Under the pieces are notes generated by a model. The model ran no database searches. It saw only the letters and a program-made list of their open reading frames with translations, and was not told where the DNA came from. A stretch of DNA of 44,050 bases from Escherichia phage BEU33: sequence record OM632667.1. The stretch is one strand, 5' to 3'. Both the position numbers and the translations under genes were made by a program. Shown piece after piece: positions 11,116 through 36,542 of this stretch. Position 1 is the first letter of the stretch. Each line of letters begins with the position of its first letter.

Positions 11116-11140
11116 AAGGCCCCTTTCGGGGCCTTTTTCT
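11116..11140. terminator. bidirectional terminator AAGGCCCC-tttc-GGGGCCTT
   Basis: GC stem flanked by T-tracts on both strands, between convergent genes. Confidence 0.8.
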
Positions 11141-11694
11141 TACAAACCTAATTTTAAAGCAATGTCTATAACGTTCGATTTAACGTCACCCGGTATGATG
11201 TAGGTGTCGTAATCTTTTACACCACTAACATCGTACAGATAGCCACGGCTATCGCCGATGAACGTATAGCCGTCACGATGGAGGCGGACGATTCGCACGT
11301 CATGCCCCGCGGCGACGATAGGGGCAACTTCACTGGCGAATCCACCGTCGGACACTACAAAAACTTCGTCGCCGTCAGGCAAGTTTTCAGCAAGATACTT
11401 ACCGAAATAATCATCGCCGAATACCGGTTTAATGAATTGCTCAGAAATGGCAATCATTAACTGGCGGCGGGACAACCCATTAAGAAAACCCTCGGGTTTT
11501 TCTTTCCGCGCCCGGTCGTCGTAGCCGTCGAGAAATTCGTGGTAAGCATCCTGGCCTAACGCTGCCAAAGCAATATTGAACATTGGATTCTTGAAACTGG
11601 TAGTTCCTTTCGCAAAGCCCATTTCTACCAGCGCCATAGCAAGCGTGTCTTTCCCGCAACCCGCAGGGCCATTAAGAATAATTACCTTAGCCAT
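11140..11694 (-). CDS. P-loop kinase, deoxynucleoside monophosphate kinase-like
   Basis: Walker A GPAGCGKDT and overall pattern resemble the T4 gp1 dNMP kinase family (from memory). Confidence 0.55.
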   Translation of the reverse strand: MAKVIILNGPAGCGKDTLAMALVEMGFAKGTTSFKNPMFNIALAALGQDAYHEFLDGYDDRARKEKPEGFLNGLSRRQLMIAISEQFIKPVFGDDYFGKYLAENLPDGDEVFVVSDGGFASEVAPIVAAGHDVRIVRLHRDGYTFIGDSRGYLYDVSGVKDYDTYIIPGDVKSNVIDIALKLGL

Positions 11695-12182
11695 TATTTA
11701 TCGCTCCCGTGGGGTTTTAAGTGTGTAGAGTTCCCGTTACAGTCGTATTCGGTAACTGCGTGTGCGGTTATGCCGAGGTCACGGAAATGCTTTATTACCG
11801 CTGGAGAGTCGTCGAACGCACACAAGATTCTTTCCAGTCCGAAAGCACGCAACACCTCTTCTTTAATTACGATGTCTTTTCTGTTGTCGTGTTTGCTGCG
11901 CATGATTAGCGTGTCAAACCTAACGTTATTCTCTCGTAACCATTCGCGAGTCTCCTCCTCAGCGTCATCACTTCGCCCGGTAAGGATAATTATAGTAAGT
12001 CCGGAATGCCACAGTACGCTACACAAATGGATATTGTCGTATATCGGAGCGTCATCTTTGCAGGCCATGTTAAATGGCTTCCACGCCCACGTTTCTCCGT
12101 AGTTATCTTTTGGTAACAGGTGTAAGCGATGGGTACCGTCGGCCAATGTCCCGTCTAAATCGAAAATTACAATATCTTTCAT
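11694..12182 (-). CDS. HAD-superfamily phosphatase, polynucleotide 3'-phosphatase (PNK3P)-like
   Basis: N-terminal DLDGT motif and DNRKDIVIKEE resembling the T4 Pnkp phosphatase domain (from memory). Confidence 0.55.
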   Translation of the reverse strand: MKDIVIFDLDGTLADGTHRLHLLPKDNYGETWAWKPFNMACKDDAPIYDNIHLCSVLWHSGLTIIILTGRSDDAEEETREWLRENNVRFDTLIMRSKHDNRKDIVIKEEVLRAFGLERILCAFDDSPAVIKHFRDLGITAHAVTEYDCNGNSTHLKPHGSDK

Positions 12183-13309
12183 CCCAGCATCTCCGGTGAA
12201 ATAGTTAAACGTGCGACCTCGCCATATTCGGCGCTATAAGTAATTACATTTGCACTGCGGCCCGACATCCATCCGCCGCGAGAGGCGTAGGCGTCTTTAG
12301 CCGCTAAGGTGCGGTGTTGCTCAACAATCATGTTACGGCTTTCTACAATCTTCTGGTGGTGCAGATGGCCTACGTGGGCGTAGCTGTAAACACTCTCGCC
12401 GAACGCTTTACGGAACTTGGCAATCATAACCGGTTCGATAGCGTCGAATCGTGCTTTATGCCCGTGATGGAAGAACAGCGTCGTTTTGCCGTGTTGCACC
12501 ATCTTGTAAACATCCGGCGACGTATCGACGAACACGCGCGGCTCATTGTCGTACAGCGTACTGAACATCTCAGCCAACCAAATCATACCCGATTCGTCGT
12601 GATTCCCTTGCACGATAAGCAAGCGAACATTTTTATGCTTAACCAACGCCATATCAACGACACGGCGGACCATACGAATCATGTAACGGACCAGTTTCTG
12701 ATAGCGCGTGTCAGCGTCAAGGACATGACCGCTTGCGGGCGTAACGGCATCAAGACTATCGAAGTGCGCTAAGTCACCAAGAAGATTGATAACCCCAGTA
12801 CCGGCATCCGGTGCTTTCTGGAATGCTGCATCGAACCAACGAGAGAACAGGTCTTCCGCAATCTTCATGTCCCAGTCGTCGCCGCTCTCGTCGGCCCAGG
12901 CCAGCATACCGAGATGGAAATCGGATACAGTGTAAAGATTGAGCAGCTTATCGTCCCGTTTGGCACGAACGGCTTTAACAGGTGCAACGGGCGTAATCTC
13001 CGATTTCATGCCTTCGATCACGGCTTTCATCAATTCAACCTGACGTTCGGCGTCAGTGTCGGTCTTAACCCATTGCAACTTAGTGTTGCCGAACTCATCC
13101 ACCAGTGACGACGTTCCTTTAATCTTATAGCCGTCCGGGACAAGGTGGCTAACATCACGTCCGTGACCTACACCTTTCTTAGCCAGCTTCGCTTTACGGA
13201 TACGAATTACGCGGTCTGAGATGCCGTATTTACGGGCGATGTCTACATTCTTCATTCCGGCGTTCAATTCTTCCTGTAACTGTTCGTCGGTTATTTTCTT
13301 CCGGGCCAT
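12179..13309 (-). CDS. calcineurin-like metallophosphoesterase with N-terminal HTH domain
   Basis: Motifs SDFHLG, GDLAHFD, GNHDE, HHGH, GHLHH in canonical order; about 115 aa of HTH-like N-terminus. Confidence 0.7.
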   Translation of the reverse strand: MARKKITDEQLQEELNAGMKNVDIARKYGISDRVIRIRKAKLAKKGVGHGRDVSHLVPDGYKIKGTSSLVDEFGNTKLQWVKTDTDAERQVELMKAVIEGMKSEITPVAPVKAVRAKRDDKLLNLYTVSDFHLGMLAWADESGDDWDMKIAEDLFSRWFDAAFQKAPDAGTGVINLLGDLAHFDSLDAVTPASGHVLDADTRYQKLVRYMIRMVRRVVDMALVKHKNVRLLIVQGNHDESGMIWLAEMFSTLYDNEPRVFVDTSPDVYKMVQHGKTTLFFHHGHKARFDAIEPVMIAKFRKAFGESVYSYAHVGHLHHQKIVESRNMIVEQHRTLAAKDAYASRGGWMSGRSANVITYSAEYGEVARLTISPEMLG

Positions 13310-13610: not shown

Positions 13611-13717
13611 GTAGTGTGCTAGAATAATTTTGCGCCTAGTGTCGCACACGAAAAGCGGGTGGTTCCCGTCTGGCGCATTTCCTTTAACCAGTAACCTCTT
13701 AACCAAAGGATTAAAGA

Positions 13718-23690: not shown

Positions 23691-23716
23691 AAGGCCCCGA
23701 AAGGGGCCTTTTCTCT
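23691..23716. terminator. bidirectional terminator AAGGCCCC-gaaa-GGGGCCTT
   Basis: Same stem as 4313 and 11116 terminators; T-tracts on both sides; at the convergence of structural and replication operons. Confidence 0.75.
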
Positions 23717-23847
23717 ACTCTTCTGATAGCTTCTCCAGTACAAACGCCAGTTGCGCATTAGCGGCGTCTCTTTGCTGGCGTAATCGTAGAACCTCTTCTT
23801 CAAGTTCCTTGATACGTTTTTGCAAGCCGGAATCGGGGCTGTGATGT

Positions 23848-24363
23848 TCATTTGACAAATTTCCTCGCAAGATACGTTATTTCTTCTTCACAAAGTTCAT
23901 CAAGGTCGTTAGATACAAATCCTCTGGAGAATGTTCTGCTAAATTTTAAACCAGCTTTATCATTGTCACCGGCGCACACCCATTCATACGGCAAAAGTGA
24001 CATTTGCTGCCGTAAGTCAGCTGGTATGTTCGACCCCAATGCGCTAACTGCATTAAACCCGCAATTCATCAAAGCAACAGCTTTAAATATGCTTTCGGTA
24101 ACAAATACCACCCCGCTACTTGGCAAATACTCAAGTCCCCATAAACACGGCCTTGTTGTTCGGGTAAAGTACCGCGCGTCTTTAGGGTTTTTACAGTTCT
24201 TTTCAGCATGTGGCTTGTAATGCTGGTATCCTCGTAGCCTACCGTCAAAACCCCACAAGTAGAATGTAGCAACGCCAGGGGCTAAGACTACCTGGAGACG
24301 GTCTGCGTCAAAACCTCGTGACAGCAGATGCGCCTTAAGTAGTAACTCCTCGCCATCCATCAT
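23848..24363 (-). CDS. Toprim-domain protein (primase-like)
   Basis: Conserved Glu in VFVTESIF and DxD in CAGDNDKAG, the Toprim signature. Confidence 0.5.
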   Translation of the reverse strand: MMDGEELLLKAHLLSRGFDADRLQVVLAPGVATFYLWGFDGRLRGYQHYKPHAEKNCKNPKDARYFTRTTRPCLWGLEYLPSSGVVFVTESIFKAVALMNCGFNAVSALGSNIPADLRQQMSLLPYEWVCAGDNDKAGLKFSRTFSRGFVSNDLDELCEEEITYLARKFVK

Positions 24364-25784
24364 TTCTTACCTCGTCTCTTCATGTAATTAAGCAACTCTT
24401 CCTGTACCGATTTCTTCTCGTCAGTACGTGTGGCAACAACCTCGTCCAGCGTGTCTTTAGCGACGATGTGATAGAGGAACACCGGTCGCTCGTGCCCCGC
24501 TTGTTTCTGGCGGACCGGGCCTATACGCTCAACAACCTGCAAATAGTGCTCAAGGTTCCAGCCTTGCGAGATGAACGCCAGATGATGACCCCCGTCCTGT
24601 AAATTCAAACCATGCCCGGCTGACGCAGGATGCACGCATAAAATCTCGATTTCCCCACGGTTCCACGCTTCCATCTGCTTATTACCCTTCGCACCTTTGG
24701 CAAATGCCTGGGCCTGCGGGAATCGCTTAAGGATGCGCTCCAGTTCGTGCTTGAACTGATAGGCCACCAGTAACGGCGCGCCCTGTAACTCTTCCACAAT
24801 GGACTCCAGTGCGTCCAGTTTCGTGTCGTGCACTTTCTCCCAGTCTTTGGTTGCTTCGCCGTCAGGGCCCGAAACATACACGGCACCGGAGGCAATCTGC
24901 AGACACTTCGACGTCTTCGCCGCAGCGTTAGCCGCTTCAACTTCTCCGCTTTCCAGTTCCGCGAATAGCTTCTCCTCCATATCGATGTACGCCTGACGTG
25001 CTTTCTTCGGCAGGTCGATTTCAACCGGCACGATAACAGGCGCTTCACAACCGAACCACTCGGCGGCGTCAATCGTCAGACTGATGTCCTTCATCTTCTG
25101 GTGAATCTCGTTATCTGCACCAGGGCGGGCGTGATATTCACGTGCCATCGCAGATTTTCCTTTCTGTACCGAATTAAACCAGCGGTCGGTGAATGCTGTA
25201 TACGACGAACCTAGGCGCTCGCCAGCGTCGATAAACCAGTTCTGGCCCCACAAATCCTTGAGGCCGTTTGGTGACGGTGTACCAGTCAGGTTAATAAAAC
25301 GCTTAACCCTTCCGAAAGCCACTTTACTAAGCGCCTTTGCACGCTTGCTACCACCTGAACGGCTGCGGAATGATTTAAGCTTCGTGCTTTCATCGGCAAC
25401 GATAACAGTAAAAGGCCAGTCATCTTTGCCATAGTAGTCAATCAGCCACTCAATAACTTCGTAGTTCGTGCAAACCACGTTAGCATCTGACTCCAGCGCC
25501 GCGATGCGGCGCTTCTCTGAACCAGTCGCATCTACAACACGCAGACATGGGAATTGCCATTTCTCTTGCTCTGCAGGCCACGTACCAGACGCAACCCGCA
25601 GCGGGGCGAGGATTAACACGCGGTCGTCATCATTAAGTTGGCCGTTTCGGAACAGTCGGTTTAATGCCCACAGTACGCTGCCAGTCTTCCCAGCGCCCAT
25701 GCTTGCCCATATGTTGCAGCGATGGTGCCGCAGCATGAACGAAGTCATGAGCTTTTGGTACTCACGCCTTTGAAACTTACTCAT
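24360..25784 (-). CDS. SF2 helicase, SNF2-like
   Basis: Walker A GAGKTG, motif II DEST, LTGTPSPN, C-terminal GHGLNLQDGG block. Confidence 0.75.
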   Translation of the reverse strand: MSKFQRREYQKLMTSFMLRHHRCNIWASMGAGKTGSVLWALNRLFRNGQLNDDDRVLILAPLRVASGTWPAEQEKWQFPCLRVVDATGSEKRRIAALESDANVVCTNYEVIEWLIDYYGKDDWPFTVIVADESTKLKSFRSRSGGSKRAKALSKVAFGRVKRFINLTGTPSPNGLKDLWGQNWFIDAGERLGSSYTAFTDRWFNSVQKGKSAMAREYHARPGADNEIHQKMKDISLTIDAAEWFGCEAPVIVPVEIDLPKKARQAYIDMEEKLFAELESGEVEAANAAAKTSKCLQIASGAVYVSGPDGEATKDWEKVHDTKLDALESIVEELQGAPLLVAYQFKHELERILKRFPQAQAFAKGAKGNKQMEAWNRGEIEILCVHPASAGHGLNLQDGGHHLAFISQGWNLEHYLQVVERIGPVRQKQAGHERPVFLYHIVAKDTLDEVVATRTDEKKSVQEELLNYMKRRGKK

Positions 25785-26706
25785 TTACCGCCCCCATGAA
25801 TGCCTTTATAAATTCAGCAGCTACTTGCGGGACGATGGCATTGCCGTAACCGCGCAATCGTCCCACTCTGGCGGGTATCCCATCAGCCAGCGGGAATGTG
25901 CCGGGTTCAACTGGCCTGAATTTTCCATCCCGGCATCCGAGCCAGTCTGCCTCTGACCAGAAGCCGTGATGCGGATTGGTCGCGATATTTTCAGTCCCTG
26001 CTCCGTTGAGTAGTCCAGCCTGTCGAAAGTCCGGTCCTTTCCGTCCTTGCGAATCACTGTCTCTCCGCTCCCTCTGTAATCGTTCGCGGTCGGCGTCGCC
26101 CATGCCGTCATCGCGGCGGCCCACCCCAGTTTGTTCGGTTTCGTCCTGCCGTCTGTGCTGCGCATGTTCACGTCGTTTGTTATCAGTGATACTGCTGGCG
26201 TGGGCCAATCTATGCGCGCCGAAGAAAAGTCGGTCGCGTTTGTGCGGTGCGCCGACGCTACAAGCTGGGAGTACGGCAAACCCGACGGCGTAGTTTTCTC
26301 CTTCCAGGTGAGTTTGTAAATCGCACATCCACGATTTTGCAATTGCTGGCGCAACCTGCTCCCCAAAGAGGACTGGAGGGCGGCACTCGCTGATGAGGTC
26401 GAGGAACACAGGTGCGAGGTGTCTCGGGTCGAACTGTCCGAGTTGCTTTCCCGCTGCGCTAAACGGTTGGCAAGGCGGGCTTCCCGTCCAGAGAGGCGCA
26501 TCTTCCGGAACTCCCGCAAGTCTGAGCGCGAGAGGCCAGCCGCCGATACCAGCGAAAAAATGACACTGGGTGAATCCGTCGAGGTCTTCTGGCTTAACTT
26601 CAGTAATGCTTCTTTCATCTACAACTCCAAAAGGTATGTGACCCTGTTTTATTAATTCACGCAGCCACGCGGCTGCGCCTTTATCCCATTCGTTGTAATA
26701 GTTCAT
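25777..26706 (-). CDS. DNA (cytosine-5)-methyltransferase
   Basis: Motif I FAGIGGW, motif IV SPPCQPFS, C-terminal GYGNAIVP; unusual charged low-complexity insertion in the middle. Confidence 0.8.
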   Translation of the reverse strand: MNYYNEWDKGAAAWLRELIKQGHIPFGVVDERSITEVKPEDLDGFTQCHFFAGIGGWPLALRLAGVPEDAPLWTGSPPCQPFSAAGKQLGQFDPRHLAPVFLDLISECRPPVLFGEQVAPAIAKSWMCDLQTHLEGENYAVGFAVLPACSVGAPHKRDRLFFGAHRLAHASSITDNKRREHAQHRRQDETEQTGVGRRDDGMGDADRERLQRERRDSDSQGRKGPDFRQAGLLNGAGTENIATNPHHGFWSEADWLGCRDGKFRPVEPGTFPLADGIPARVGRLRGYGNAIVPQVAAEFIKAFMGAVNE

Positions 26707-27425: not shown

Positions 27426-29679
27426 ATCGCTTCATCTCCGCACCTTCAGCTACAAGAGGGAACCCCTCCGCCCATTCCGGCAATTCGCACATCAACCGCT
27501 CAAGCTCTGCTACATTGTATTCCGGTGAATCTGGTGTCTCGCAGATAATCTCATCGTGTACGTGAAGTACAATCGGGTAGCCGTTTGCTTCTACGTTCAG
27601 CAGGGCATTAGCCAGCAAATCACGGCACAATGCCTGAGTGCAGTTTTCCACCAGTTTACCCGAGTAGGTGTACTGGAACCCCCACTGACGGGTTAGCTGA
27701 TTTTCGCCCTGGTACTTAATGCGCACGTTAGTAGACACCTTCCCGTCTCCATCTGTTTCTTTCGACACGCTCAACCCGACGCCCGGATAAGACATAACGC
27801 GACCCGACGGCAACGTCATGCGCAACCACCAACCAGCGACTTTGTTGCCGTTGTTGTCCGTTTCTACGTTACGCGAAAACTTAACACCCCGCGGTCCCGC
27901 AGTGAACTCTTTACCTGGATTGCGGATAGCCGCCATAGCCGCGTCTTCAATATCACGCCAGAAAGCTACTGTTTCCGGGTGTGACTCACGCCACATGCGC
28001 TTGATAGCGTCGCAGGTACGCCACACTTTCTTATCAAGAATATACGATGGTCGGTCATCCTTTTCACCTGGCCGCGGAGGTCGCTTGGCTTCCTGAATAC
28101 GTGCCCATTCATAGCCGCGTGCAGTAGCGGCCCATATATGGTTGGGGAATGTCCCGTCCATTGTTTTTGCCATATCAACCAGGTTTAAGCCGAGGTTCTT
28201 AGCAAACTGAACGAAAGCACCGACACCACCAGCATAGCCAAGGCCCAATTCACATGCTTTACCTATCTGGCGTAGGTCACTACGGCTTTCGAGAATGTAA
28301 TCAGGGTCCATGCCGAACATCTTACCCGCGGTTACACAGTAAATATCCAATCCCGCACGGAAGGTATCGAGAGCGGTTTCTTCTCCCGCCAGCCATGCCA
28401 ACCCGCGACCTTCAACGTTAGAGTAATCAGCTACGACAAACTTACGCCCGGCTTCCGGTATGATGCAGCTACGCACCGTCGATGCCGTTAGCTTGGCTAC
28501 ATCGAAACGGCGATGCGCGCGGCCTTTAAACAACAGGTCGATTCCGTAGGACAATGGGTGTGTTACTCTCCACCAGTCCTTCTCTGACATCCAGTCATAA
28601 CGTACTTTCTTCTTTTTATTCTTCGGGTCGTCATGATAGTACCCGCGCGCCAGGTTCTGTGGCTGGAAGCCTTTACCCGCGAACCGTAACGTACGCTTTG
28701 CCCCACCGTACTGGATACAACCGCGGCGTCGGTCGTCCGACGAGCGGCCTAACAGCAGCGGGTTATATTTCGTGGACGCTGTTGACGCGGCCCCGAGGCG
28801 CATTTCGATAATCGTGCGGGCGTCGTCAGGTAAATCATCATCGGCCAGCAGGTCATTCAGCGTCGACTTCTGTGCGTTGTGTATGCGGTGTGCGGGGGCC
28901 AGTTCACGTAGAATAGGCAGAAAGTCCTTACCGGTAAGCGAGCCGCCGTATTTACGTTGAGCTTCTTCCTGTAACTGTGCCTTGTGCTTCTCTACGGCTT
29001 CAATCGCGGCTTCCGCCAGTGCGACGTCAACCTTAAATCCGCGGTCGTTGATTAACTGGTCAAGTTCCAGTACACGGTCTTCGAACTCGGAGTTACCCCA
29101 ACGCGGCAGCTTATGGAAGACTTCACGCATCGCAGTGATGTCGCTCACGGCGTACCTGATGAACATCGCCCACTCGTCAGGGTGAGTTTCTGCGGTGTAG
29201 CGGCGGATTTTGTAGTTCTTCGGCGTCGGTTTAGAGAAACGCTTAATCAGAGCCTTGCCGCGTTTATCTTTCGCGTTGTCTGCAGACACGCCCAGCACTT
29301 CGCACAGCGCATCAAGAGAACCCGGCAGCGCGTGACGGAACGCCCAAATCATAGTATCAATGGTGTTACTTACCGGAATATCAAAGCCCCAGCAGTGTTT
29401 CATGATTAGGCGATCGAAAAGTCCACCGTTGTGCCATACCATCTTAATGCGACTGTTTGGCTTAACCAGACGGCGTAGAGCGCGGTGTAAATCCACGGGC
29501 ATATCACTGCCGTCGGTGCAATCCCATACCTGTACAGGCTCGTCGTCAAAAGCGTAGGTACAGATAAGCACTTCGGTAGTTGGATGCTCGGCGTAAGCAT
29601 AGGAGCCGACTTTCTTCAAATCGGCTTCGGAGAATGTTTCAAAGTCTAAGTAAAGCAATGTGTTCATAGTCTGTACCAC
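27415..29679 (-). CDS. family A DNA polymerase with 3'-5' exonuclease domain
   Basis: Exo motif LDFETFS, motif A DYSNVEGR, motif B RQIGKACELGLGYAGG, motif C VHDEI. Confidence 0.9.
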   Translation of the reverse strand: MVQTMNTLLYLDFETFSEADLKKVGSYAYAEHPTTEVLICTYAFDDEPVQVWDCTDGSDMPVDLHRALRRLVKPNSRIKMVWHNGGLFDRLIMKHCWGFDIPVSNTIDTMIWAFRHALPGSLDALCEVLGVSADNAKDKRGKALIKRFSKPTPKNYKIRRYTAETHPDEWAMFIRYAVSDITAMREVFHKLPRWGNSEFEDRVLELDQLINDRGFKVDVALAEAAIEAVEKHKAQLQEEAQRKYGGSLTGKDFLPILRELAPAHRIHNAQKSTLNDLLADDDLPDDARTIIEMRLGAASTASTKYNPLLLGRSSDDRRRGCIQYGGAKRTLRFAGKGFQPQNLARGYYHDDPKNKKKKVRYDWMSEKDWWRVTHPLSYGIDLLFKGRAHRRFDVAKLTASTVRSCIIPEAGRKFVVADYSNVEGRGLAWLAGEETALDTFRAGLDIYCVTAGKMFGMDPDYILESRSDLRQIGKACELGLGYAGGVGAFVQFAKNLGLNLVDMAKTMDGTFPNHIWAATARGYEWARIQEAKRPPRPGEKDDRPSYILDKKVWRTCDAIKRMWRESHPETVAFWRDIEDAAMAAIRNPGKEFTAGPRGVKFSRNVETDNNGNKVAGWWLRMTLPSGRVMSYPGVGLSVSKETDGDGKVSTNVRIKYQGENQLTRQWGFQYTYSGKLVENCTQALCRDLLANALLNVEANGYPIVLHVHDEIICETPDSPEYNVAELERLMCELPEWAEGFPLVAEGAEMKRYAK

Positions 29680-29942
29680 GTCTGATAGTCTGCTTCTGTG
29701 AGATGGTCGTCGCGATCTTGTTTCTTGTTTTTACCGCGTTCTATGATTTCTGCCCAAGTCCGGTCTGGGTCTGTGTCTTCTATTAAATGTTTATGCTCCT
29801 CGCATGCATAGTGTTTATACCAGTCTCGTACACCGTAAGCTGGAGGGTATTTAGTCATCCAAATTGCTCTAACTTTTTTACCTTCTGCCTTACAAAATTT
29901 GCAGTATGTGATGCGTCTGTATCTCTTAAGTTCCGCTGCCAT
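29664..29942 (-). CDS. hypothetical Cys/His-containing small protein
   Basis: CKFCKAEG and YACEEHKH suggest metal binding; RBS AAGGG; overlaps polymerase start. Confidence 0.4.
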   Translation of the reverse strand: MAAELKRYRRITYCKFCKAEGKKVRAIWMTKYPPAYGVRDWYKHYACEEHKHLIEDTDPDRTWAEIIERGKNKKQDRDDHLTEADYQTWYRL

Positions 29943-33330: not shown

Positions 33331-33558
33331 TTACTCGCCGTCGCCTTCTGTAAGGCTATCGTCTATTAATTCAAATTTACCGTTTGAGTGTTGGATAGCT
33401 TCTTGCCCGCAATGGTCGCAAACCACCAGTTTATCGAATCCGTCAAACTCGTCCCCGACTACGCAAGAAAGTACAAATTTATGTTTTGTACATACTTCTT
33501 GATGTTCACCGAAAATTACCCGGAAACATTTAGTTATAGCTCCAGTGATTATGTTCAT
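33331..33558 (-). CDS. small Cys-rich protein, putative zinc ribbon
   Basis: CxxC-type pattern CDHCGQ plus upstream Cys; RBS GAGGTGA; first gene of leftward operon. Confidence 0.5.
   Translation of the reverse strand: MNIITGAITKCFRVIFGEHQEVCTKHKFVLSCVVGDEFDGFDKLVVCDHCGQEAIQHSNGKFELIDDSLTEGDGE
33359..33518. repeat. inverted repeat, copy A of about 160 bp at about 87 percent identity to 34190-34349
   Basis: Hand alignment of the reverse complement of this segment with 34190-34349. Confidence 0.7.
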
Positions 33559-33909: not shown

Positions 33910-34107
33910 TTATTGCACCTTTATCGGGTATCTTTTGCGAAACTTACCTAACCCGCAGTACACGCTGTAAGCCTCTGTGTAACTGAACACAACATGATAC
34001 CCGCGCCCATAAGGAACTACGTTAAGAACTTCTACTACTTCGCCTCTGTGGTTGGTGTATTTATTACCTTTCAGTTCGTCGCTTACTTCTTTAAATTTAC
34101 CGCTCAT
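33910..34107 (-). CDS. hypothetical protein
   Basis: 65-aa ORF with strong RBS GAGGAGG. Confidence 0.45.
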   Translation of the reverse strand: MSGKFKEVSDELKGNKYTNHRGEVVEVLNVVPYGRGYHVVFSYTEAYSVYCGLGKFRKRYPIKVQ

Positions 34108-34189
34108 TCCAAATCCTCCTCTGTCACTGTCAACATTTCATTCGGTTCGTATATTGTCTTTGGAATCTTGTTATCAGTTATGTTTTCAC

Positions 34190-34349
34190 GCAATTTTCGG
34201 CGCACCGCAAGAAGTATGCACTAACCATAAATTTGTACTTTCTTGCGTGGTGGGGGATGAGTTTGATGGGTTCGATAAACTTATTGTCTGTGACCATTGC
34301 GGGCAAGAAGCTATACAACACTCAAACGGTAAATTCGAACTAATTAACG
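34190..34349 (+). repeat. inverted repeat, copy B; degenerate paralog of gene 33331-33558 without a credible start
   Basis: Encodes FGAPQEVCTNHKFVLSCVVGDEFDGFDKLIVCDHCGQEAIQHSNGKFEL on plus strand but has no ATG or RBS; overlaps the 3' end of the primase-helicase gene. Confidence 0.6.
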
Positions 34350-36542
34350 AATTCTGGTGTTCAGCCTGTAACGACCTGGGATTATCTGATTGTTTTCGTC
34401 AGTACCCGGAACAAGATACCCGGCCTCAACCATTTTCTTAATCTTCCCGCGTTCTATGGCTTCTTTGGAGTTAAACGCCTTTGCGTTGGGGTCTGACTGT
34501 GCGAGCTTATTCGCCGCGGCGACTGTGATGCCTTCGTTGCCGTTGTAGGTTCCTTCCGCCAGTTCAAACGCCGCGAGTATCGTGGCCTCCGAACTGTTGA
34601 CGGCGTTCTCTACGGTTTTACGTACATTTTCTTTACCTTCTTTCGTCAACCCTTCTTCCCGCTCTTTCTCCTCGTCAGTTTTGAACGGCTCGAAACCCCA
34701 CGGCATCAACACAAGCGCCTTGTGTGGTTCAGGCAGGTCCAGGTTTACGATTGTGCCGTATTCCTCTGTGCTACCCAGGAACTCAACCGCTCGGTATTCT
34801 TTAGGTGGCGGCGCTTCACGGAACTGTACCGACTCCAGCACCATGCCAACCGTCTTCTGCTGAGGCCCGTGCTTGAATTTCGAGTGATATACGTTTATCT
34901 GACGGTCGGTTGCACGTTCGATTGTCAGTTCCACATCAACACCCGCATACAGCGCCCCACTGCCGCGTGCTTTCTTTCCACCCTTCGGCGTATGGTGGAC
35001 AACGCCTACTGCGGCTTTAGTTGCATCGCGTACTTCTTTCAGAATGGCGATAACTTTACCCATGCCGATTGCTGTTGATGAACTGTTCTCGTCGAACTTA
35101 TCAATCGTCAGTGCCAGGGTCTGGTTAAGGGTGTCGAACGCAACCATGCCAATTGGCTCGTCGCCAGCAGTTTCGCGCATTAACTTAATCAGGCTTTTAA
35201 GTTTGCCGACTTCGCCCATATCGATGACATGTACATAATCTTTACCTTCCTCGCCGTATTTAGCCGCGAGCGCATCAATACGTGTACGTGTGGCTGCCCC
35301 ACCCTCGCCGTCGATATAGAAATGGTGACAACGCTGGGTGTCAGCCCCTGCAAACCGGTATCCGGCGGCGCTCAGGTACATCATCCCCAGCGTATAGAAT
35401 GATTTGTACGTGCCCGATTCTCCGACGATACCCCAGATACAATCCGACGGCATGTACCCCTCAACGACGAAATCAGCCTTTACCGGCTCCGGTAACTCGT
35501 CCTCCTCTGAGTCCTCGTCGTCTTCCAGGTCGTCGAGGCTGCATGAGACAGATTCACGCGCCCCCCAACCGATGGCCTCTGCGACTTCACTGAACGGCAG
35601 CCCGGTCGCATCGCACGCGTACTTCCACACCTCTTTCGGTGACAGGCCTTCTGTCGCCGTAATGTCTGTGTCGTGAATCATGGTTACGTTTGGCGCTTCA
35701 TACCCCTCGCGCGGGAAGCACAGCAGGAAGTCGTCCGGGCGCGGTGTCGGGTCGCTGTAGTTTTCAGCATGTTCCGGTGTGGCTGGCATCTTAAGGCCGC
35801 GCGGCGTCATGACGCCGCCGTACTCAAACGCCAGTGCTTCAAACGCGTCTGTAAACGCGGTGCGCAGTTCTTCCGGTATCTGGTAATCCGATGCGCTGCT
35901 AACGTCAACGGCTGGGATGCCTTCCAGTAACTCGTTCGGGTCGATCAGGTCGTTGCGGCGCGACCAGATAACGGTAGCGCCGACCGGCGGCAGGTACATC
36001 GGCTGCGACAGAGTGAACCCGCTGCGGTCCGCACCCATGCCTTTGAAGAAGTGCTCCAGCAACCCATGACGAACACGGATGATATCACCACCCTCAACTG
36101 GGCGGGCCAGCGGCATGACGACGCGAAAGCGAGGCGACTCATCGGTATGTGATGCCGTGGTGTAGAGACACATCGCCCGGCGGCTGCGATTAACCAGGCG
36201 CACCGCTTCCTGGTACTCTTCCGGTGTTGCACTGTCGAAGTCCAGATACGCCAGCGACGATTTGCTCACAGACGCGTCACAGCGATAGAAGAAGCCTTTA
36301 CGCGCTTGTTTAAAGCCACCGGTTTCCGGGTCTTTTACGGTGCTGTGTGTAGAATCGCACGCGGCCGTGATATAACCGGGCGCAGTCTTGGGGTTAATCC
36401 CGTCACGAACGGCATCGAGCGGCTGGATTAACTCTTTCAGGTCGTCCAGTGTTGCCGTGTGTGCGGTTCTGACATTTATATCCTTTTTCCCCGCCCGCGC
36501 GTTGCGGCGTGACCACGAGTAGGATAAAATTACATCGGACAT
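34344..36542 (-). CDS. DNA primase-helicase (AEP-type primase-polymerase domain plus RecA-like ATPase)
   Basis: DxD motif in AYLDFDS, SHTD motif, Walker A GESGTYKS, Walker B-like MVAFD. Confidence 0.6.
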   Translation of the reverse strand: MSDVILSYSWSRRNARAGKKDINVRTAHTATLDDLKELIQPLDAVRDGINPKTAPGYITAACDSTHSTVKDPETGGFKQARKGFFYRCDASVSKSSLAYLDFDSATPEEYQEAVRLVNRSRRAMCLYTTASHTDESPRFRVVMPLARPVEGGDIIRVRHGLLEHFFKGMGADRSGFTLSQPMYLPPVGATVIWSRRNDLIDPNELLEGIPAVDVSSASDYQIPEELRTAFTDAFEALAFEYGGVMTPRGLKMPATPEHAENYSDPTPRPDDFLLCFPREGYEAPNVTMIHDTDITATEGLSPKEVWKYACDATGLPFSEVAEAIGWGARESVSCSLDDLEDDEDSEEDELPEPVKADFVVEGYMPSDCIWGIVGESGTYKSFYTLGMMYLSAAGYRFAGADTQRCHHFYIDGEGGAATRTRIDALAAKYGEEGKDYVHVIDMGEVGKLKSLIKLMRETAGDEPIGMVAFDTLNQTLALTIDKFDENSSSTAIGMGKVIAILKEVRDATKAAVGVVHHTPKGGKKARGSGALYAGVDVELTIERATDRQINVYHSKFKHGPQQKTVGMVLESVQFREAPPPKEYRAVEFLGSTEEYGTIVNLDLPEPHKALVLMPWGFEPFKTDEEKEREEGLTKEGKENVRKTVENAVNSSEATILAAFELAEGTYNGNEGITVAAANKLAQSDPNAKAFNSKEAIERGKIKKMVEAGYLVPGTDENNQIIPGRYRLNTRIR

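Follow-up and report, generated by a model that had tools for sequence, protein, structure and literature searches.

A Rad-like protein with a DnaG/T7-type primase core, encoded in a variable slot behind the SNF2 helicase gene of Escherichia phage BEU33

Background

The 44,050-nucleotide stretch of Escherichia phage BEU33 DNA analyzed here (sequence record OM632667.1; hereafter the window) presents a puzzle of apparent redundancy. As an initial annotation of the bare sequence recognized, it codes for two different primase-type folds, namely a 732-aa AEP/RecA-like primase-helicase and a 171-aa protein with a Toprim signature, whose gene overlaps that of an SNF2-like helicase. What, then, does the smaller protein do in a phage that already possesses a primase-helicase? 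The initial annotation saw in it an unusual, minimal Toprim protein, coupled to the SNF2 helicase and perhaps acting as a nuclease or topoisomerase-like factor rather than as a primase. We used profile searches, structure comparison and comparative genomics to address this question. The evidence favors an optional counter-defense protein of the Rad family, which is known from T5-like phages for its action against retrons.

Results and discussion

The 171-aa protein is a complete DnaG/T7-type primase core

The features of the locus are collected in Table 1. The ATG of the 171-aa ORF (24363-24361) shares four nucleotides, ATGA, with the TGA of the SNF2 gene (24362-24360), and is preceded by a GAGG Shine-Dalgarno sequence 7 nt 5' of it. 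Conventional searches recover the Toprim assignment: the Pfam model Toprim_2 scores 22.4 bits and barely passes its cut-off of 22.1, and PHROG 849, labeled 'DNA primase', matches with an E-value of 1.8e-48. A PDB sequence search returned DnaG only, and marginally (E 1.7), and among NCBIfam models only dnaG was hit (E 0.065); as these matches are marginal, a comparison of folds was needed.

Table 1. Features of the locus and of the replication genes discussed in the text
Feature	Coordinates	Strand	Evidence or correspondence
Rad-like protein, 171 aa	23848..24363	(-)	DnaG/T7-gp4-type RNA-polymerase domain made of an N-terminal and a Toprim subdomain
Glu90 codon GAA, conserved Toprim glutamate	24094..24096	(-)	E. 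coli DnaG E265, T7 gp4 E157
Asp133-Asn134-Asp135 codons, Toprim DxD motif	23959..23967	(-)	DnaG D309/D311
Asp153-Leu-Asp-Glu156 codons, third acidic cluster	23896..23907	(-)	E156 is the position of the Rad mutant E156H
SNF2-type helicase, 474 aa, upstream of the Toprim gene	24360..25784	(-)	Pfam SNF2-rel_dom 5.3e-13; PHROG 62 E 1.4e-168
Small coiled-coil ORF, 51 aa, TTG start, downstream of the Toprim gene	23715..23870	(-)	PHROG 5915 E 1.4e-23
C5 cytosine DNA methyltransferase, upstream of SNF2	25777..26706	(-)	Pfam DNA_methylase 5.6e-17
AEP-like primase with RecA/DnaB-like helicase, 732 aa	34344..36542	(-)	AEP motifs; AAA_25 at residues 351-522

The AlphaFold model of the protein is confident (pLDDT 94.8), and its chain ends right after the Toprim subdomain. 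When a family profile built from 18 homologues was aligned with residues 204-316 of Escherichia coli DnaG using hhalign, the match had a probability of 90% (E 1.6e-6) and paired K55 with K229, E90 with E265 and D133/D135 with D309/D311. The same profile gave a non-significant alignment with the single sequence of T7 gp4 (probability 0.7%), which still placed E157 and D207/D209 correctly. In the alignment of the 18 homologues, which share 39-94% identity, E90, D133, D135, D153 and L154 are invariant, so that the catalytic Glu and DxD claimed at the outset persist down to 39% identity; their loss, which would have undone the Toprim assignment, is nowhere seen in this alignment. In structure comparisons, RNase M5 and the topoisomerases align with the protein over only about 85 residues and with lower Z-scores. 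The protein is a complete, pared-down two-subdomain primase core of the DnaG/T7 type, and the description as a minimal or bare Toprim domain has to be revised.

Another possible reading is that of a DNA-directed Toprim nuclease, nickase or topoisomerase-like factor, with the DNA of the phage or of its host as the target. Toprim centers do cleave DNA in OLD-family nucleases and in topoisomerases, and the acidic residues are conserved in the 171-aa protein, which carries no RNase M5 C-terminal domain, ABC ATPase or catalytic-Tyr domain beside its Toprim. We consider such an activity very improbable. The earlier doubt that this is a primase nevertheless holds in one respect, in that a non-replicative role is probable.

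Also correct was the initial statement that the protein has neither a zinc-binding nor a helicase domain. The zinc finger of primases gives template specificity; the 18-homologue alignment has no conserved Cys/His cluster, the 171-aa ORF has no CxxC..CxxC pattern, and the protein has neither a C-terminal domain for docking on a helicase nor a fused helicase of the DnaB type. A split primase with a separately encoded zinc finger was likewise considered and found no support: the only Cys-rich ORFs found (29793-29903 and 33409-33492) are unrelated, and none lies beside the Toprim gene. These absences count against an auxiliary primase, that is, a zinc-finger-less DnaG/T7-type domain that would make or extend RNA primers during phage replication after being loaded by the SNF2 helicase or the AEP-helicase; its tasks could include, for example, the restart of stalled forks or lagging-strand priming. 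On the other side, the polymerase-type fold and the DnaG motifs have been retained.

Genomic setting and the replication module

Around the gene, a stretch of 3 kb matches the sequence of Escherichia phage BEU35 at 100% identity and that of phage Golestan (Guernseyvirinae, Kagunavirus) at 98%. The gene belongs to an operon on the minus strand, running from about 36.5 to 23.7 kb and ending against a convergent tail-spike gene, which constitutes the replication module: in order, the AEP-helicase, a DUF2800 PD-(D/E)XK nuclease, an Enc34-type ssDNA-binding protein and a family A DNA polymerase, followed by a VRR-NUC nuclease, the C5 cytosine methyltransferase, SNF2, the 171-aa ORF and a small coiled-coil ORF. 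The last of these has no ATG and overlaps the Toprim gene by 23 nt; the Golestan record gives it 45 aa and the label 'exonuclease subunit SbcD', for which we found no support. Location inside a replication operon with a translational link to SNF2 would also fit a replication-linked role. The composition of the gene argues against an auxiliary primase, since its GC3 is 42% as against 59% for SNF2, 58% for PolA and 62% for the AEP-helicase, a difference that suggests a foreign origin.

A further point against an auxiliary primase is that the phage already has the AEP-helicase. The initial assignment of that gene product is upheld: its AEP domain (residues ~95-190) displays motif I (D101xD103), motif II (T128TASH132) and motif III (D172) on an AEP fold, followed by the AAA_25 helicase, and it is probably the replicative primase-helicase of the phage.

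The primase-helicase gene has peculiarities of its own. Two arms of a 171-nt inverted repeat, 85% complementary, lie at 33359-33529 and 34180-34350, with the right arm at the 3' end of the gene. Relatives of the protein, 753-761 aa long, have a conserved acidic tail at the C-terminus (...ITDNKIPKTIYEPNEMLTVTEEDLE), whereas the window ORF stops early at 732 aa, and a leftover of the tail coding sequence, in frame, lies at about 34107-34182 on the minus strand, downstream of the inserted repeat arm. The shortening is either a rearrangement that removed a probable interaction tail or an assembly artifact. Kagunavirus relatives (P0212, P0221 and P0238) fall into two sorts, with N-terminal AEP-like domains only 23% identical mounted on a helicase that is 77-92% identical, which looks like domain swapping within the primase-helicase. 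The alternative AEP variant has a zinc-like C-x2-H...C-x-H motif, of which the window protein shows only a degenerate form (PATPEH, not PCPNEH). Elsewhere in the window, a 92-aa ORF at 29664-29942 (-), overlapping the start of the DNA polymerase gene, has a zinc-ribbon-like C-x2-C...C-x2-H motif (PHROG 9585), and an Rfam int-alpA RNA match (36.6 bits against a gathering threshold of 35.8, E 4.7e-4) lies at 13629-13693 (+), upstream of the tail assembly chaperone genes.

The gene occupies a variable slot behind SNF2

A tblastn search of phage genomes with the 171-aa protein matched 487 records, about 67 of which contain Guernseyvirinae-type copies of at least 60% identity; the other matches, at 30-58% identity, are in T5-like, Proteus, Providencia, jumbo Erwinia/Klebsiella and Vibrio phages. 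By comparison, SNF2 is found at 90% identity or more in 447 phage records, and the coiled-coil motif of the small downstream gene in 476; essentially all Guernseyvirinae have this motif. The Toprim gene is accordingly present in about 67 of some 450-480 Guernseyvirinae genomes and missing from ~85% of them, and these otherwise have near-identical replication genes. Moreover, some contigs of 31-44 kb carry the gene with frameshifts or truncations, and in one phage record it lies in three pieces. Both the patchy presence and the broken copies count against an auxiliary primase.

The slot itself can be delimited from the genomes that lack the gene. In the Jerseyvirus ZCSE9, whose SNF2 is 97% identical, there is no Toprim gene, and a 73-aa coiled-coil gene directly follows SNF2 with the same 4-nt overlap; its C-terminal half is homologous to the small ORF of the window, the C-terminal motif of which marks the far side of the slot. 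In Dhillonvirus, a Dcm methyltransferase overlaps the SNF2 stop by the same 4 nt, and other Jerseyviruses have a homing endonuclease in this place. Since unrelated genes share the overlap, the ATGA junction comes with the end of the SNF2 gene itself, and it loses its force as a point in favor of a priming function. The C5 methyltransferase is a second accessory gene of this stretch, being likewise absent from ZCSE9. Thus, what lies behind SNF2 is a variable accessory-gene slot at the operon end, and the 171-aa gene is one of its optional, accessory occupants and no part of the replication core. An SNF2-Toprim functional module, as the initial annotation had implied by speaking of coupling, was rejected, as the slot is variable, the overlap generic and the distributions different (447 against 67 records).

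One observation would also fit a replication-linked role: relatives whose Toprim copy is only 55-61% identical keep the gene behind SNF2, which indicates that the association is old in the Guernseyvirinae lineage. Weighing all of these points, we regard an auxiliary primase as unlikely.

Relationship to the Rad protein of T5 and SP15

Among relatives that have been studied by experiment, the closest is T5p074 of phage T5, a 172-aa 'DNA primase-like protein' encoded in the tRNA-rich early region of T5 (L002, 3986-4504). It shares 49.4% identity with the 171-aa protein over 166 aligned positions (window residues 9-169; blastp E 4e-39), and in tblastn the query coverage is 94%. T5p074 is the same gene as ORF071, annotated 'DNA primase' in AY587007, and ORF071 of T5 is Rad (PMC10644984), the retron anti-defense protein that corresponds to ORF75 of phage SP15. 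ORF75/Rad of SP15 is the escape determinant against the retrons Eco2 and Eco7 and rescues phages from them, although that peer-reviewed study could not yet determine the mechanism (PMC11555353). According to the Rad preprint (2023), T5-like phages are rescued from Ec67, Ec78 and Ec83 and lambda vir from Ec48 and Se72, with a lowering of the msr-msd ncRNA and msDNA but not of the RT and effector transcripts. The preprint further reports that mutants at R13, P33, I88, D135 (D135H) and E156 (E156H) were each merely weakened by the single change. These positions match exactly the residues R13, P33, I88, D135 and E156 of T5p074, and this fit of the numbering, along with the identity with ORF071, equates T5p074 with Rad. 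The window protein is identical at three of the five sites (R16, D135 and E156) and has a conservative V88 for I88; at the fifth, where the family consensus is Pro, it has Tyr (Y35 for P33).

Activity data cover homologues from T5, SP15, and Proteus, Shigella and Salmonella T5-like phages (Rad preprint; PMC11555353). The homologue of Proteus phage Privateer is strongly active (Rad preprint), and the Privateer protein is also the second-best BFVD structural match of the 171-aa model (TM 0.80/0.83). Taking the Proteus RP7 homologue as a stand-in for that of Privateer, we measured an identity of 41-42% between it and T5 Rad and of 40% between it and the window protein; on that basis, the window protein falls inside the range of divergence that active members cover. 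The preprint counts 541 homologues, and the accessible part of its supplement lists no Kagunavirus or Jerseyvirus members.

The T5 relatives also bear on the priming question. Deletion mutants of T5 and SP15 that lack the Rad region are viable, as is BF23, which naturally lacks it (PMC10644984; Rad preprint), and a different Toprim protein of T5, a primase of 296 aa, is encoded beside its polymerase. A homologue that is dispensable in a phage with its own replicative primase is a further argument against an auxiliary primase.

In PADLOC, the sole match for both the 171-aa protein and T5p074 is the model 'RTasDnaG-like' (E 5e-4 and 9e-7, respectively), which describes a DnaG-like protein associated with defense reverse transcriptases. 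DnaG-like Toprim modules thus appear on both sides of RT-based conflicts.

Fusions and neighborhoods of the family at large

In a profile search of 1.84 billion representatives, the family comprises 2033 clusters (at 50% identity) with E <= 0.001 and 103 with E <= 1e-30, and almost all members are standalone proteins of 165-190 aa. A small standalone form is thus the rule in this family rather than the unusual case that it had seemed to be. A Pfam scan of the 10 longest fusion proteins recovered, as partners, a CCA-adding enzyme with an HD domain (P0104), a HAD phosphatase (P0094), an NMNAT-like cytidylyltransferase, a GNAT domain with an Arr-type ADP-ribosyltransferase, and Mom; five of the 10 had the Toprim match alone or nothing. 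None of the 10 had a helicase or a primase zinc finger, and the lack of a helicase among them is another mark against priming.

Rad-family genes lie in tRNA clusters in T5, rokbiter and Proteus RP7 and at 4 of 12 non-Guernseyvirinae IMG/VR loci; in Vibrio F92 the gene adjoins a tRNA nucleotidyltransferase, in Erwinia Special G and L031 it is beside an RtcB ligase, and in L036 it adjoins a PNKP-type HAD phosphatase. NAD-salvage genes are also found nearby, with NAMPT/NadR in L009, L017 and L039, and NMNAT and PnuC in rokbiter. Rad-family neighborhoods are typically accessory or counter-defense islands. In Agricanvirus-type and other jumbo phages (L014, L031, L033 and L038), the gene is split exactly between the N-terminal and Toprim subdomains (for instance L014 3902-4511, gp48/gp49 of Erwinia phage Special G), just upstream of the RtcB tRNA ligase in L014 and L031; the split may stem from a frameshift or an intron, or the enzyme may truly consist of two chains.

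Such associations could mean that the protein is an RNA-end processing or repair enzyme, either a trimming nuclease or a rebuilding, template-dependent nucleotidyl transferase whose substrates would be structured RNAs such as damaged tRNA. Healing and sealing enzymes would be its partners against tRNA-cutting defenses, and retron inhibition would be a consequence or a side activity. The fusions to the CCA-adding enzyme and the HAD phosphatase, and the neighboring tRNA nucleotidyltransferase, RtcB, PNKP-type phosphatase and tRNA clusters, are all in keeping with this proposal, and several of the retron effectors that Rad counters are tRNases according to the literature. The window phage itself has a cassette at 11140-13309 (-) encoding a P-loop protein of 184 aa that would be the kinase, a HAD_PNKP-type phosphatase of 162 aa and a calcineurin-like metallophosphoesterase of 376 aa. 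This cassette resembles a set for healing nucleic-acid ends, without a ligase in the vicinity, and could be another counter-measure against RNA- or DNA-cutting defenses. However, this cassette is 10 kb from the Toprim gene, and there are no tRNA genes in the 44,050-nt window, which also led us to discard a role in the maturation of phage tRNAs for this phage. The RNA-repair/tRNA context, moreover, derives from a small sample, being seen at 7 of the 12 non-Guernseyvirinae IMG/VR loci. Rad blocks retrons with unrelated effectors, Ec48 and Se72 included, and lowers ncRNA and msDNA (Rad preprint); this points to the shared retron RNA/DNA as the target, and not to tRNA repair. A primary function in RNA-end repair therefore appears doubtful.

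A related proposal, which we think improbable, takes the polymerase fold at face value: Rad-family proteins would be zinc-finger-less primase cores that perform nucleotidyl transfer on RNA or RNA-DNA hybrids, as widespread phage polymerases for RNA repair or RNA decoys against tRNA- and RT-based defenses. They may copy or extend retron msDNA or ncRNA, or join their fusion partners and neighbors (the CCA-adding enzyme, RtcB and the PNKP-type phosphatase) in rebuilding tRNA ends. In the Guernseyvirinae, the SNF2 translocase might in addition hand the co-translated 171-aa protein to its nucleic-acid substrates.

A counter-defense model

The explanation that we prefer, with a probability of roughly 60%, is that the 171-aa protein is a Rad-family accessory anti-retron factor, presumably one that cuts retron RNA. 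By its sequence relationship to Rad, the window protein probably has the same kind of anti-retron activity, and the chemistry of the family is plausibly RNA cleavage; for the degradation of retron ncRNA, the preprint is the sole source. According to this proposal, the early/replication operon would supply the protein. Its catalytic core is complete, with the nucleic-acid-binding N-terminal subdomain and the Toprim metal center (E90, D133, D135 and D153/E156), whereas the template-specificity zinc finger and the helicase-docking module were lost or never present. A basic groove would bind the structured retron ncRNA (msr-msd) or the msDNA-RNA hybrid, and the Mg2+-dependent Toprim center would cut the bound molecule, so that msDNA formation would stop and the retron would not set off abortive infection. 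The priming of replication would be left to the AEP-helicase, and the position behind SNF2 would reflect the variable slot and no functional partnership.

Four observations count against this proposal. First, the DnaG motifs (K55 equivalent to K229, an FP-like strand and the acidic triad) and the fold fit a polymerase and no known nuclease. Second, anti-retron activity is not universal, given that in a later study T5 carrying ORF75 failed to escape one type I-A retron. Third, one of the five mutated Rad positions (P33) is Tyr in the window protein. Fourth, the old and translationally linked place of the gene behind SNF2 in the replication operon would suit a role in replication as well.

Conclusions and comparison with known systems

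The family and its anti-retron role have already been described for T5-like phages, and the window protein is an added member. Its recognition has some practical consequences. Hundreds of phage genomes label a Rad-family protein "DNA primase", while the evidence favors an optional counter-defense gene; the relabeling matters for judging phages to be used against retron-carrying E. coli or Salmonella, as in the choice of phages for therapy or biocontrol. Further, Rad is extended from T5-like phages to a small siphovirus without tRNA genes, where it sits in the variable slot behind SNF2, thereby separating the anti-retron role from tRNA biology. A full DnaG/T7 core without a zinc finger, along with the recurrent links to RNA repair, may help to direct studies of how retrons are inhibited.

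The closest known system is Rad of T5/SP15 itself, a single-domain protein of nearly the same length (172 as against 171 aa) that keeps the residues equivalent to R16, E90, D133, D135 and E156. Both T5 Rad and the 171-aa protein were once annotated as 'DNA primase', and both are dispensable or accessory in their own phages. They differ in phage lineage, a 44 kb Guernseyvirinae siphovirus as against the ~120 kb Demerecviridae, and in location, the 171-aa gene being the last replication-operon gene behind SNF2 whereas Rad lies in a tRNA-rich anti-defense island. With the RNA-polymerase domains of DnaG, T7 gp4 and Twinkle, the protein shares the Toprim Glu and DxD. Its core, however, is roughly half as large as that of DnaG (E. 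coli/B. subtilis) and has Tyr49 in place of DnaG R221, and its gene, unlike those of replicative primases of the DnaG type, is missing from most of the phage subfamily and has a non-essential homologue in T5. RNase M5, which cleaves pre-5S rRNA, and the small standalone Toprim proteins (PDB 6tg6 and 2i5r) are likewise small and have a Toprim metal center; RNase M5 offers a mechanistic analogy, a precedent for a Toprim enzyme that cuts structured RNA, with the likeness confined to the Toprim half. Lastly, a Toprim catalytic center is common to the 171-aa protein and to OLD, Gabija GajA, PARIS AriB and the Toprim domain of retron Eco2, effectors that act in phage-host conflict, some of them by cleaving tRNA.
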